64,000 nucleotides of DNA, taken from an uncultured Acidobacteriota bacterium (GTDB lineage: Bacteria > Acidobacteriota > Vicinamibacteria > Vicinamibacterales > CAVVIG01). Below the pieces are notes generated by a model. That model did not search any database, was not told the origin of the DNA, and saw only the letters and a program-made list of their open reading frames with translations. Shown here one piece after another: positions 2,643-58,544 of this stretch. How positions within the stretch are numbered: position 1 is the stretch's first letter; every line of letters begins with the position of its first letter. The DNA lies in NCBI GenBank assembly GCA_963780685.1, contig CAWACZ010000017.1, positions 320,563 through 384,562 of the forward strand, in the 5' to 3' direction. The position numbers were made by a program, and so were the translations under genes.

Positions 2643-2720
2643 AGGCTAGAGGCTAGAGGCTAGAGGCTAGAGGCTAGAGGAGAAGAGGCTAGAGGCTAGA
2701 GGCTGGGGGCTAGAGGTCGG
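2643..2720. repeat. heptanucleotide tandem array (AGGCTAG)n, about 10 units with one 8-nt irregular unit
   Basis: Read directly: AGGCTAG x5 (2643-2677), AGGAGAAG, AGGCTAG x2, AGGCTGG, GGGCTAG, AGGTCGG. Starts immediately after the mlaD TAG stop. A period of 7 puts TAG in all three forward frames. Confidence 0.9.
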
Positions 2721-2749
2721 GGCTGCGACAACAACACAGGAGAAGAGCG

Positions 2750-3025
2750 ATGGCCAGAGATGAGGGAGCTGGGCCGGGAAGTATCCTGTTGGCGTTTCTG
2801 CTGGGTGCGGTGAGCGGGGCAGCGGTCGCGTTGCTGTACGCTCCCGCCACCGGTCGCGAGACGCGTGAGTATCTGAGCGAGCGCGCCCGCGAAGGCCGCG
2901 AGCGGGCAAACGTCATGGCCGAGAAGGGACGTCAAATCATCAACGAAGGCCGCGACACCCTCGCGTCGGCGATCGAGAAGGGACGCGAAGCGTACCATCA
3001 AGCACGGTCGCAGGAGAACGCGTGA
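2750..3025 (+). CDS. YtxH-domain protein
   Basis: 91 aa with an N-terminal hydrophobic helix (ILLAFLLGAVSGAAVALLYAP), then ATGRETREYL and a charged helical tail typical of the YtxH family. Confidence 0.7.
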   Translation: MARDEGAGPGSILLAFLLGAVSGAAVALLYAPATGRETREYLSERAREGRERANVMAEKGRQIINEGRDTLASAIEKGREAYHQARSQENA

Positions 3026-3444
3026 CTACGTGGTCTCAGGTTTTTCTGGGCGTCATTGCCTTCGCCACGCTGGTGACCGCGCTCATCCAGGTGGGCGTGA
3101 TCATCGCCGCTGGACGACTGGCCCGTCGTGTCAATCGGCTCGTCGATCAGTTCGAACGTGAGCTCAAGCCGACCTTCGGTCACGTCAATGATATCGGCCG
3201 GGACGCGGCACGGGCTGTGGCGGTGGCGACAGCCCAAGTGGAGCGCGCCAATCGACTCCTGGGGCAGTTTGCGCATCAAGCCGAGGCGACCGTGTCCACG
3301 CTCCAGACGAGCCTCGGCGCTCCTGCACGAGAAGGCAAAGCGCTGATGAGTGCGTTCCGCGCCGCCTTGGACGCCGTTCGGGAAGCCAGGCGCAATCCGC
3401 GCTCGCGCCGCCGCGTGGAAGACGAAGACGCGCTGTTCATCTAA
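3022..3444 (+). CDS. DUF948-like single-pass membrane protein
   Basis: GTG start overlaps the ytxH stop (GTGA), with an AGGAGA SD upstream. N-terminal TM helix followed by a helical region. YtxH/DUF948 pairing is common. Confidence 0.55.
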   Translation: MTTWSQVFLGVIAFATLVTALIQVGVIIAAGRLARRVNRLVDQFERELKPTFGHVNDIGRDAARAVAVATAQVERANRLLGQFAHQAEATVSTLQTSLGAPAREGKALMSAFRAALDAVREARRNPRSRRRVEDEDALFI

Positions 3445-3727
3445 CCTGCCTTGCGCCCGGTCAGTTGCCGGCACCGTACCGCCGCCGCCGATTTCTCTGG
3501 CGACCGAAAAACGACGCTTGCCGTTATGGAGCGTAAGGGAACTGGTTCCCGCGTTTCCGAAGCTCAACATCAGAGCCGGCGAGTGGCAAATCGCCGGGGT
3601 TGGTTTCGAGAAGCGTGAGCGAATCCGGTCGCAGTCTTGCCGGATCCGCATAGTGGCCGGCATGGGGCCCTTTCTATGCTCCTGATGGATCCCCGATCTG
3701 CCACCTCACGACCAAGGCGACACTCGC

Positions 3728-5059
3728 ATGAAATACTTTTCCTCGTTTCGATTCGAAGAGAACGACGGCACGTTGTTTCGAGGAGCCCAGAAGATCCCGT
3801 TGACACGCAAGGCCGGCGACCTGCTGCGATGCCTGCTCGACCATTCCGGCACTGTGACCGCGCACAAAACGATTCTCGCTACTGTCTGGCGCGACACCCA
3901 CGTGCAGCCCGGCAACATCAAAGTCCTGATTCGCGAGCTCCGGCGAGCACTCGGCGACGACCCGCGACGACCGCGTTTCATTCGAAGCGAACCAGCACGC
4001 GGCTATGCGTTCGTTGCGACAGCGTCTGAAGCGCCGCCACCGGGCAGCGACGTGGTGCGACGCGACAGGGCGCCGATTTTCATCAATCGTCGGTCCGAGC
4101 TCGAGAAGTTGCAGCACTGTTTGGCTGCGGCTGGCGAGTCCGACTGCCGCGTCATGCTGATCGAAGGCGAGCGCGGAATCGGAAAGACGACGCTGTGTGA
4201 TGCATTTCTTCACGTCGTGAGACAGATGCCGGCAACCCGGCTGTCTTACGGTCAATGTGTCGAGCAGACCAGGATCTGCGAGCCGTACTTTGCGATGCTG
4301 AATGCGCTGGACCACCTGGCGCGACAGTTCCCTGCGGAAGTGCCCCGGCTGCTCATGCGACACGCGCCAGGGTGGCTGCGCCAGTTGCCGCAATGGTCCC
4401 GGATGGCGGCTCGGACCGCGGCTATCGCACCCTGCGACCACCGCTCCTCGCGCATGATTCGCGAGATGATGGCGGCGCTGGAAGAGATCTCACGAGAAGC
4501 CACTCTGGTTTTGGTGCTCGAGGACTTGCACTGGGGAGACGTCGAAACGGTCGACTTGCTCCGCGCACTGGCCCGGCACCACACGCCGGCGAAGTTCTTC
4601 ATTGTCGCGACCTACGTGGCGAGCGAGGATTCACCAGCGGGGAGCGCCCTGGCGCGTCTTGCCGGCAATCTGCAATCGTTGCAGCCGTCTGCGTGGATGC
4701 CGATCGGCCCGCTCACCGAAGCTCATATCAGAGGCTATCTCGAAACGCGCTTCGGCACGCCCGCCCTCGACGGCCTCGCGCGGCCGCTCTGCAAGATGAC
4801 CGGAGGAAGTCCGCTGCGGCTTGTCAGCGCCATCGACACCCTTGTCGCGACAGGTCAGATCGGCAGTCACGCCGACGGATGGCGCCTGGAATTTGCGCTG
4901 TCGAACCCGAAGCCGCCACTGCCCGATGGATTGAGCGCCCCTGTGCTGTGGCCCGGCGCCCAATCGCCGTCGGAGGATGAAGTGGCTCTGCAGGAGGCCG
5001 CATTCGTCGCCTCGGAGCTGCTCGCAGGGACTACTGGGCGGTTCGGGCGAACGTCGTAG
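3728..5059 (+). CDS. winged-helix (OmpR/PhoB-type DNA-binding) plus P-loop ATPase regulator, possibly C-terminally truncated
   Basis: N-terminal trans_reg_C-like region (LTRKAGDLLRCLLDHSGTVTAHKTILATVWRDTHV...RGYAF). Walker A GERGIGKTTL and Walker B-like LVLEDLHWGD. Ends soon after the ATPase domain, with no TPR-like tail. Confidence 0.65.
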   Translation: MKYFSSFRFEENDGTLFRGAQKIPLTRKAGDLLRCLLDHSGTVTAHKTILATVWRDTHVQPGNIKVLIRELRRALGDDPRRPRFIRSEPARGYAFVATASEAPPPGSDVVRRDRAPIFINRRSELEKLQHCLAAAGESDCRVMLIEGERGIGKTTLCDAFLHVVRQMPATRLSYGQCVEQTRICEPYFAMLNALDHLARQFPAEVPRLLMRHAPGWLRQLPQWSRMAARTAAIAPCDHRSSRMIREMMAALEEISREATLVLVLEDLHWGDVETVDLLRALARHHTPAKFFIVATYVASEDSPAGSALARLAGNLQSLQPSAWMPIGPLTEAHIRGYLETRFGTPALDGLARPLCKMTGGSPLRLVSAIDTLVATGQIGSHADGWRLEFALSNPKPPLPDGLSAPVLWPGAQSPSEDEVALQEAAFVASELLAGTTGRFGRTS

Positions 5060-56945: not shown

Positions 56946-56959
56946 TGGTATGAGTGTGT

Positions 56960-57044
56960 GAAGAAATCGCTGTAGCGCAGGCCTTTCAGGCCTGCTTTGT
57001 CGGGCAGCCCTAAAGGGGCTGCGCTACATCAGTGCGATTTCTTC
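56960..57044. repeat. REP-like element copy 3, flanked by 11-bp inverted repeats (MITE-like unit)
   Basis: GAAGAAATCGC (56960-70) ... GTAGCGC-[GCAGGCC tttca GGCCTGC]-linker-[GCAGCCC taaag GGGCTGC]-GCGCTAC (56972-57027) ... GCGATTTCTTC (57034-44). Confidence 0.85.
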
Positions 57045-57064
57045 TGAGAGCTGAGAGCTGAGGA
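57044..57064. repeat. heptamer array (CTGAGAG/CTGAGGA)x3 just upstream of the atpD ATG
   Basis: CTGAGAG CTGAGAG CTGAGGA, then cgtt-ATG. The last unit provides a GAGGA SD. Confidence 0.9.
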
Positions 57065-57068
57065 CGTT

Positions 57069-58470
57069 ATGAATATCGGCAAGGTCGTTCAGGTCGTCGG
57101 TGCGGTGGTCGACGTCGAGTTCCCCGGGGCGCTCCCGCCGATCTACAACGCGCTGACTGTCGACTACACGGTCGCCAAGCAGCCGGTGAGCCTGACGCTC
57201 GAAGTGCAACAGCATCTCGGCGACCGGTGGGTCCGGACCATTTCCATGGCCGGCACCGAAGGGATCAAACGAGGGTTCGAGGTGACCGACACGGGCGGGC
57301 CGATCTCCATGCCGGTTGGCGATGAGGTGATGGGCCGGGTGTTCGACGTGACCGGACAACCCGTCGACGAGCGCGGTCCCGTCAACACGACGAAGCGCTA
57401 TCCCATTCATCGCCCGCCACCTCCGCTCGTGGACCAATCGACGTCTCCACAGGTGCTTTCGACCGGCATCAAAGTCATCGATTTGATCTGTCCGTTCCTC
57501 AAGGGAGGCAAGGTCGGCGCGTTCGGCGGTGCCGGCGTCGGCAAGACCGTCGTCATCATGGAGCTGCATCAACAACATCGCCAAGCTCCACGGCGGCGTG
57601 TCGGTATTCGCAGGTGTCGGTGAACGCACGCGCGAGGGCAACGATCTCTATCACGAGATGTCCCAGGCCGGAGTGATCAACCAGAAGGACCTGGGAGCGT
57701 CCAAGATCGCCCTGGTCTACGGTCAGATGAACGAGCCGCCCGGCGCCCGTCTGCGGGTGGCCCTGAGCGGCCTCGCCATCACCGAGTACTTCCGCGACGA
57801 ACGAAATCAGGACGTGTTGCTCTTCATCGACAACATCTTCCGATTCTCACAGGCCGGCTCAGAGGTGTCCGCGTTGCTCGGTCGTACGGCGAGCGCCGTG
57901 GGCTACCAGCCAACGCTCGCGGCGGAGATGGGCGTCCTGCAAGAGCGGATCACTTCGACCAAGAAAGGATCGATCACCTCTTTCCAGGCGGTCTACGTGC
58001 CGGCCGACGACCTCACGGACCCGGCGCCGGCGACGACGTTCGCTCACCTGGACGCGACGATCGTGCTCGAACGCTCGATCGCCGAGCTGGGTATTTATCC
58101 GGCCGTGGATCCACTGGCTTCAACGTCGCGCGCGCTGGCGCCCGAGATCGTCGGCGAGGAGCACTACCAGGTCGCGCGGCAGGTGCAGCGGGTCCTGCAG
58201 CGGTTCAAGGATCTGCAGGACATCATCGCCATCCTGGGCATGGACGAATTGTCGCCCGACGACAAGGTGACGGTGTACCGTGCGCGCAAGATCCAGCGTT
58301 TCCTGAGCCAACCCTTCAGCTCGGCGCAAGTGTTCACCGGCCGCGAGGGCAGGCAGGTGGCGGTCGCCGACACCGTTCGCGGCTTCAAGGAGATCCTGGA
58401 AGGCAAGCACGACAGTGTTGCCGAAGGGGATTTCTACATGAAGGGCGGGATCGAGGAAGTCGCTAAATAG
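57069..58470 (+). CDS. atpD: F0F1 ATP synthase subunit beta, frameshifted as assembled
   Basis: [14 protein letters not shown], then an extra C at ~57567. The conserved continuation [28 protein letters not shown] is in the +1 frame (listed ORFs 57069..57623 and 57529..58470). Confidence 0.95.
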
Positions 58471-58544
58471 CTGATACTGAAAACTGATAGCTGAAAACTG
58501 ATAGCTGGTAGCTGGAAGCTGGAAGCTGGAAGCTGGTAGCTGAT
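58471..58544. repeat. heptamer array (CTGRWAG)n, ~10 units filling the whole atpD-atpC spacer
   Basis: CTGATAC TGAAAA CTGATAG CTGAAAA CTGATAG CTGGTAG CTGGAAG x3 CTGGTAG CTGAT-ATG. Confidence 0.9.

Follow-up and report, generated by a model that had tools for sequence, protein, structure and literature searches.

What are the tandem heptanucleotides that fill spacers between genes in a 64,000-nt stretch of DNA from an uncultured Acidobacteriota bacterium, and what brings them into its atp operon? The stretch, here called the window, covers positions 320563-384562 of contig C17 in an assembly of 7.86 Mb with 63% GC and 17 contigs, and the closest relatives of its AtpA come from metagenome-assembled genomes (MAGs) of soil Acidobacteriota. 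Tandem Repeats Finder (TRF) and direct reading of the letters recovered the arrays of 7-nt units that a first-pass annotation had reported there. They are of the same class as the short tandemly repeated repetitive (STRR) sequences of cyanobacteria, the GGGAATC repeats of Xanthomonas and the TAACTGA repeats of Beggiatoa, some of them with units of 8 or 9 nt. We regard the arrays as probably being hypervariable simple-sequence repeats that are driven by slippage and tolerated in spacers only. The type of repeat is already known: the analogy to STRRs drawn by the first-pass annotation is apt, while its claim of novelty and its stop-codon mechanism fail. The present case adds the polymorphism in steps of 7 nt within an essential operon and an order of inverted arms that is fixed across the phylum.

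With a TRF score of at least 34 as the threshold the assembly holds 486 arrays of period 7, 239 of period 8 and 610 of period 9, of which 412, 171 and 299, respectively, are intergenic. A period of 7 nt is the commonest among the intergenic arrays, though others occur as well. A stricter detector retained 170 period-7 arrays, 155 of them in the non-coding ~18% of the genome, and found 14, 10, 0 and 0 arrays with periods of 5, 6, 10 and 11 nt, which puts the excess at period 7 well outside chance. Genes were taken from a crude caller based on open reading frames (ORFs; 81.8% coding), and its start predictions are equally crude. Of the 4734 gaps of at least 30 nt, 545 (~11%) contain an array of period 7 to 9. 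By TRF, copy numbers reach 11.4 units in the window and 20-23 in the genome. Arrays lie nearer to the end of the upstream gene (median 24 nt) than to the start of the downstream one (57 nt), and divergent gaps are depleted of them. Among the units AGCTGNN and GGCTRGR dominate, with TAGCTGA as the commonest single unit and G-tract units, e.g. CTGGGGG, as a minority. The core CT[AG]RNRR put forward from the window fits 47% of heptamer arrays compared to 5% of random intergenic heptamers.

The closest comparison is with two contigs from metagenomes of the Joint Genome Institute (JGI), L088 and L089, which share 92-97% coding identity and the same gene order with the window. Between atpA and atpG (the A-G spacer) the window has a 131-nt hairpin of AGCT-family units where L088 and L089 have a 65-nt direct GGCTRGR array. 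In the G-D spacer, which follows atpG, a CTGAGRG array interrupted by an element like a repetitive extragenic palindrome (REP) stands against (CTGATAG)13-14 without such an element, and in the D-C spacer, which follows atpD, a direct array stands against a hairpin. Only the stop- and start-codon junctions of the spacers are kept between the window and L088. A fixed role for each spacer, e.g. in tuning subunit stoichiometry, is hard to reconcile with the exchange of units in A-G and the hairpin in D-C of this ~93%-identical relative. Among contigs that were assembled from different samples and encode one and the same AtpG, the length of the G-D spacer is 154, 161 or 168 nt, corresponding to 13, 14 or 15 units, and one such contig has 5 units at its end. 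The A-G spacers of these contigs are identical. Thus the comparison of array lengths between strains that had been called for returned differences in whole units.

The atp loci of 44 relatives were compared. Array-free members have -4 to 45 nt in A-G, ~40 nt in G-D and ~10-15 nt in D-C; in G002, which belongs to the same genus in the Genome Taxonomy Database (GTDB), the three spacers are 3, 16 and 15 nt long. In the window and the relatives L005, L006, L009, L015 and L021 between one and three atp spacers are occupied by arrays and then measure 71-137 nt; the units are related yet different, and the CTNNCAG arm always comes first. In a tree of AtpA and AtpD all array-bearers fall into one clade of 16 members (98% support), where they are mixed with array-free members, and at least five gains or losses of arrays took place within that clade. 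Sister taxa that are ~0.02 substitutions per site apart can differ, with a 115-nt hairpin in L015 and a 3-nt spacer (TAGCTGATG) in L038. Proto-arrays such as TAGCTGATG and TAGCTGAAGGCTGAG grade into long arrays at the same site. The pattern (CTGNNAG)4 is patchy and occurs in 8 of 41 relatives.

Two explanations were rejected. Arrays are present in the same spacers of independent JGI metagenome contigs, of long-read MAGs and of fragmented, probably short-read assemblies. This contradicts an assembly artefact, and the presence of arrays throughout the genome and in relatives contradicts the other way in which the first-pass annotation thought that its claim might fall, i.e. absence elsewhere. 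Furthermore, an intact MutS1 is present here and in 34 of the 41 relatives, regardless of whether they are rich or poor in arrays, so that the patchy distribution is not due to a loss of mismatch repair.

We propose that strand slippage creates the arrays in place and alters their length by whole units at a time. Between genomes a few percent apart in sequence, turnover is complete. Seven-nt loops are poorly recognised and corrected by MutS-type repair. Selection would keep the arrays in non-coding gaps because a step of 7 nt shifts the reading frame. About 40-50% of arrays consist of an array followed by its own reverse complement; such DNA could extrude a cruciform and its transcript could form a long stem-loop. 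The complementarity of the arms may be kept by template switching between them, by selection for pairing or by both. Quasi-palindromes are generally homogenised and kept complementary by template switching. The atp arrays would then be lineage-specific additions to spacers that measure 0-40 nt in array-free relatives, and tolerated passengers, not required signals. Once in place, the A-G hairpin would draw the stop codon of atpA and the start codon of atpG together, the purine-rich CTGNNAG units would act as an initiation region poor in Shine-Dalgarno (SD) sequences, and long stems, sufficient for RNase III, could be substrates of or barriers to nucleases.

The inverted arrangement was studied across the genome. 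A reverse-complement partner array lies within 300 nt of 43% of heptamer arrays (7% in the control) and of 54% of octamer arrays (3% in the control). The 75 clear inverted pairs have a median length of 111 nt, a median loop of 34 nt and a stability of -0.49 kcal/mol per nt. In 63 of these 75 pairs the arms mirror each other unit by unit above a control with permuted unit order (p = 1.4e-10), with a modest effect size. Loops and flanks of the AGCT, GGCT and 8-mer families are unrelated from locus to locus. Partners are equally frequent (43-44%) in co-directional, convergent and divergent gaps. A strand asymmetry of the hairpins was not found, with the lower minimum free energy on the sense strand in 29 and on the antisense strand in 17 pairs (p = 0.13), and G-U pairs did not differ either (166 versus 147). 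Because palindromes are equally frequent in all types of gaps, because sense and antisense strands show no asymmetry and because structure is not kept per spacer between close relatives, an origin of the hairpins at the level of DNA is indicated rather than selection on any particular transcript.

Several observations weigh against slippage as the complete account. The core AGCT, equivalent to CTGNNAG, is present in 31% of heptamer arrays compared to 2.6% expected from random intergenic heptamers, and the core GGCT (CTAGAGG, CTGGAGG) in 27% compared to 3.2%. These two superfamilies make up ~58% of arrays, whereas random slippage should amplify any local heptamer. The arms of the hairpins have a polarity as well. 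In an annotation-free scan of the genome the order (CTNNCAG)n-loop-(CTGNNAG)n outnumbered the reverse order 17:0, and among 301 sampled Acidobacteriota it occurred in 7 genomes from 6 families, including this one, and the reverse in none. All 20 pairs of the 8-mer family have the order (GAGRATTT)n-loop-(AAATYCTC)n. With respect to genes, CTGNNAG lies in sense orientation beside starts in a ratio of 45:8, a count that may be partly inflated by the crude gene caller, and beside stops the reverse orientation (CTNNCAG) prevails 36:11. Even for arrays without a detected partner the orientation was 16:3 at starts and 8:16 at stops (Fisher p = 0.0016).

Polarity as a pure symmetry effect holds only in part. 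An inverted repeat reads alike on both strands, so that its orientation to genes is uninformative, and for the orientation relative to genes the objection is partly true. Whether A...A' or A'...A is formed does not follow from symmetry, however; this polarity of the arms is real, at 17:0 here and seven genomes to none in the phylum sample. A replication-oriented motif like Chi or the FtsK-orienting polar sequences (KOPS) was also rejected, as arrays are oriented without regard to local GC skew (p = 0.83). Taken together, choice of unit, order of arms and orientation to genes suggest a sequence-specific driver or selection beyond the neutral model; the slippage account explains neither the preference for AGCTGNN and GGCTRGR nor why the arms keep one order. 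One might think of a sequence-specific agent that seeds, orients or maintains the arrays and is reflected in the unit families, the arm order and the preference for starts (AGCT) or ends (8-mer) of genes, a reading that we consider improbable. Such an agent might be a protein that binds nucleic acids or an activity dedicated to generating repeats, common to array-rich lineages. In that case the arrays would constitute a regulatory or structural layer built into operon mRNAs and not debris of slippage.

Placement beside starts raises the question whether CTGNNAG arrays are translation-initiation or regulatory regions, where the purine-rich heptamers are bound by an S1-, Csp- or CsrA-like protein or by the ribosome instead of an SD sequence. 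We think that this is rather unlikely, in spite of 88 heptamer arrays whose ends are no more than 15 nt away from a start codon, several of them with a shared GCTGAT-ATG junction, and in spite of the sense-strand bias reported above. Only 2 of 28 genes preceded by CTGNNAG have a core SD compared to 30% genome-wide, and a single base separates TAGCTGA from TAACTGA, a unit placed alike in Beggiatoaceae (PMC4679880). Yet atpG and atpC of close relatives start after an array-free spacer of 3-15 nt or after another unit family; thus the arrays are dispensable and interchangeable. Half of the arrays lie away from starts. The bias in orientation, for its part, follows automatically from the fixed polarity of the hairpins and may be inflated where stop-free arms were absorbed into predicted ORFs. 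Orientation also decides about arrays as frame-independent stop-codon insulators behind genes, the mechanism advanced by the first-pass annotation, which we find hardly credible. In its favour, TAG or TGA does appear in all frames in four window arrays, and any stop-bearing unit of 7 nt shows its stop in all three frames. However, stop-bearing units are on the sense strand in 36% of the arrays in co-directional gaps (89 of 246) and on the antisense strand in 29% (71 arrays), and arrays that abut the upstream stop codon favour the stop-free orientation (25 sense versus 42 antisense). The CTGNNAG family turns its stop-free strand towards the upstream gene (36:11), and so does the arm behind atpA.

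On the RNA level the inverted arrays might be selected stem-loops, i.e. 3' stabilisers like REPs or bacterial interspersed mosaic elements (BIMEs), RNase III sites, terminators without a U-tract or bridges for translational coupling. Such a role is unlikely in our view. In its favour, the A-G spacer folds as a whole with -53.9 kcal/mol (z = -4.55), and the pairing begins at the stop codon of atpA and ends 5 nt short of the atpG start. The average stability of the 75 pairs and the mirroring of their arms point the same way, as does the 8-mer family, which is enriched in convergent gaps and nearly absent from divergent ones (p = 0.013). On the other hand, hairpins are neither more frequent in any type of gap nor asymmetric in stability or G-U pairs between the strands, and the structure per spacer is not conserved between 93%-identical relatives. 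Of the five window sites, three are direct arrays that have hardly any structure or none; the array at 2639-2716 had no significant RNA structure (z = +0.28) and that in the D-C spacer a weak one (z = -2.0). Terminator-like sites in the atp region numbered 5 compared to 5.4 in shuffled sequences, none of them in a repeat array, and a search for intrinsic terminators found no T-run behind any repeat array and no enrichment across the atp region. Mobility would be another source of foldbacks. The arrays could be, or ride on, elements akin to miniature inverted-repeat transposable elements (MITEs) with terminal inverted repeats of tandem units. A 12-copy family of 221 nt with 85-97% identity is represented in the window, foldbacks of ACAATTK type share irregular units and a TCGCT junction at several loci, polarity is fixed within each family, and the REP-like element is tied to CTGAGAG arrays. 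However, loops and flanks of the AGCT, GGCT and 8-mer families are unrelated between loci, strains differ by whole-unit steps within one array, and proto-arrays grade into long arrays at the same site, which makes this explanation very unlikely for the arrays in general.

How do the arrays of this genome compare to known systems? In cyanobacteria, Mazel and colleagues reportedly described in 1990 STRRs as several families of tandem heptamers in intergenic DNA with unknown function. Several dispersed families of intergenic heptamers are common to both, in different host phyla and with different unit sequences. For Xanthomonas campestris and X. axonopodis, Rehm et al. (2015, PMC4692102) report 183-186 (GGGANTN)n arrays, of which 89-93% are intergenic, and 70-75 convergent inverted pairs, which contradicts the initial remark that tandem heptamers were not known as a feature of GC-rich genomes outside the cyanobacteria. 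The resemblance is close: a GC-rich host, a mostly intergenic position, ~40% of arrays in convergent inverted stem-loop pairs, a location nearer to the end of the upstream ORF than to the start of the downstream one, depletion between divergent genes, and variation of length and sequence between close species (PMC4692102). Yet Xanthomonas uses a single G-rich unit that is capable of forming a G-quadruplex, whereas dozens of unit families plus 8- and 9-mers are found here in another phylum. Most of these units are unable to form a G-quadruplex and deviate from GGGANTN.

TAACTGA direct repeats occur in marine Beggiatoaceae, some Cyanobacteria and Bacteroidetes (MacGregor 2015, PMC4679880). They lie directly upstream of starts, usually without an SD and sometimes overlapping the upstream stop codon, and MacGregor proposed them to be initiation or regulatory sites (PMC4679880). 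Occurrence in essential operons and a patchy distribution across lineages are shared with the arrays described here (PMC4679880), as is the forward orientation upstream of mostly SD-less starts, as far as the crude start predictions go. Exact (TAACTGA)2 was not found in the genome, and four of six matches with one mismatch consist of TAACTGA plus a TAGCTGA unit; TAACTGA is present only as a variant unit within TAGCTGA arrays. Moreover, the Beggiatoaceae genome has 169 direct sets and one indirect set (PMC4679880), in contrast to the 43% of arrays with an inverted partner in our assembly. As summarised in PMC4679880, the survey of Mrazek, Guo and Shah (2007) found heptamers to be the most abundant of the long simple sequence repeats (LSSRs) with units of 5-11 nt, sporadic over the phyla and attributed to slippage. 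According to the same summary, units that are not a multiple of 3 are kept out of genes, and Burkholderia and actinobacteria are listed. Tandem 7-nt units, intergenic and dispersed positions and whole-unit variation between strains are all found here; fixed-polarity inverted pairs and Acidobacteriota do not appear in that summary of the survey (PMC4679880). Enterobacterial REPs and BIMEs likewise are abundant intergenic hairpin repeats within operons and at gene ends. Yet in REPs a single conserved palindrome has been dispersed in many copies through mobilisation by REP-associated tyrosine transposases (RAYTs), whereas tandem units generated locally, with unrelated loops and flanks, prevail here. 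A true REP-like element is present in two of the atp spacers. No publication on such arrays in Acidobacteria turned up in the library that was searched.

Few abundant features of intergenic DNA in bacteria are understood as poorly as heptamer arrays, and the present data extend these arrays to soil Acidobacteriota. The atp operon provides a natural experiment, as a conserved operon has had three spacers rewritten at 93% identity and resized by 7-nt steps between samples; thus effects on operon expression are directly testable. Arm polarity and the restricted vocabulary of units are constraints for any mechanism. Annotators are warned that array spacers and the adjoining start and stop calls are unstable, and the arrays can be used as markers for strain typing.

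In the window the atp genes are ordered atpB-E-F-H-A-G-D-C (51924-58955). Heptamers are confined to the A-G, G-D and D-C spacers, and those between atpB, atpE, atpF and atpH are without heptamer arrays. The three spacers had been described as consisting almost entirely of repeats. This was correct as to which spacers are occupied, but A-G is an inverted pair around a non-repeat loop and about two thirds of G-D are REP-like. The last unit of the right-hand G-D array, CTGAGGA, is the only SD-like sequence ahead of the atpD start codon (ATG at 57069). Outside the operon, the upstream gene of the array at 2639-2716 (1602-2642, MlaD domain) has its TAG stop inside the first unit, and 33 nt separate the end of the array from a YtxH-like gene (2750-3025) with its own AGGAG. 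No Rfam family reached its gathering threshold across the window, and an exact-sequence look-up of AtpC gave no match.

Table 1. Repeat features of the window and copies of the REP-like element elsewhere in the assembly (positions without a contig name refer to the window).
Feature	Position	Strand	Remarks
Direct array, (CTAGAGG) x11	2639-2716	+	TRF, 86% matches
Dispersed foldback element, 221 nt, one copy	31880-32100	not assigned (.)	between convergent ldh-like and glucoamylase-like genes
atpA-atpG hairpin, 5' arm	55921-55950	+	CTNNCAG-type units, stop-free, from atpA TAG; TRF 55924-55950, x3.6
atpA-atpG hairpin, loop/core	55951-55998	+	48 nt, non-repeat
atpA-atpG hairpin, 3' arm	55999-56052	+	CTGNNAG-type units into atpG start (CTGATATG); TRF 55999-56045, x6.4
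Direct array, CTGAGRG x4, left part of split array	56918-56945	+	begins in atpG TGA; TRF 56918-56944 (CTGAGGG), x3.9
REP-like double-hairpin element	56946-57043	+	inserted into CTGAGRG array
Direct array, CTGAGAG x3, right part of split array	57044-57064	+	TRF 57044-57062, x2.7
Direct array, CTGRNAG x11.4	58467-58545	+	atpD TAG to atpC start (CTGATATG); occupies entire 74-nt spacer
Further copies of the REP-like element	C16:113068-113159, C16:414510-414602, C16:324589-324680, C16:64181-64271, C13:663330-663422		in addition to 56946-57043

Two dispersed elements have to be kept apart from the arrays. The stretch 31897-32090, first taken for an inverted array, has heptamer-like arms, but it is part of the 221-nt foldback element, of which only the arms, made of GTCCTTN-like units, are heptamer-like. 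Eight of the 12 copies of this family lie between convergent genes compared to ~16% expected (other copies are found e.g. at C7:169861-170081 and C16:686546-686765), which suggests that the element prefers, or is tolerated at, 3' ends of genes. Dispersed copies with common internal sequence and ends, as expected of a MITE or foldback, were found for this site only; BLAST matches of the atp arrays and of the array at 2639 were to repeat units only, without copies of a dispersed element. The REP-like element in the G-D spacer has a length of 93-99 nt and at least six copies in the genome with ~97% identity, each inside a CTGAGAG-type array. Its left junction is usually ...GCTGA|GAGTGTGTGAAG and its right junction TTCTTC|TGAGAGCTGAGAG. 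These data suggest that the element targets CTGAGAG-type arrays. It is missing from the orthologous G-D spacer of the 93%-identical relative. A further REP-like palindrome (GTAGCGCAGGCC...GGCCTGCGCTAC) is located in the atpH-atpA spacer at 54270-54345, and the same spacer of L088 also has one, with the ends GTAGCGCAGGCC...CTGCGCTAC and a differing centre.

Some minor observations concern the atp genes themselves. Compared to L088, single-base insertions at 56632 and 57566 of the window split atpG into ORFs 56054-56665 and 56655-56921 and atpD into 57069-57623 and 57529-58470; both genes are intact in L088. The insertions may be errors of long-read sequencing or real frameshifts. L089 and L088, otherwise 99.5-100% identical, show a 39-nt difference within atpD (5774-5777 of L089 versus 11936-11975 of L088), with 452 and 466 aa called, respectively. 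The assembly contains a second atpA (C2:366536-367954) with 58% identity to the window copy. AtpA of the window is 51-61% identical to that of genomes of the same family and 77-83% identical to that of MAGs labelled Verrucomicrobiota, Planctomycetota and Binatia. Judged from these sequences, the operon in the window may be a second, horizontally shared F-type ATPase. A heptamer array of 19 units is present near the other atp operon (C2:370043-370179).

Elsewhere in the genome, 9-mer arrays of the CCTACCTGC and CCTTCCTGC families with up to ~11 copies are mostly intergenic, e.g. at C13:184171-184271 and C4:31538-31630; because 9 is a multiple of 3, the ORF-based caller sometimes calls them coding. 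Finally, a tRNA gene at C15:10600-11268 is flanked by nested inverted CAGTCGN and NCGACTG heptamer arrays that fill the 670-nt gap.

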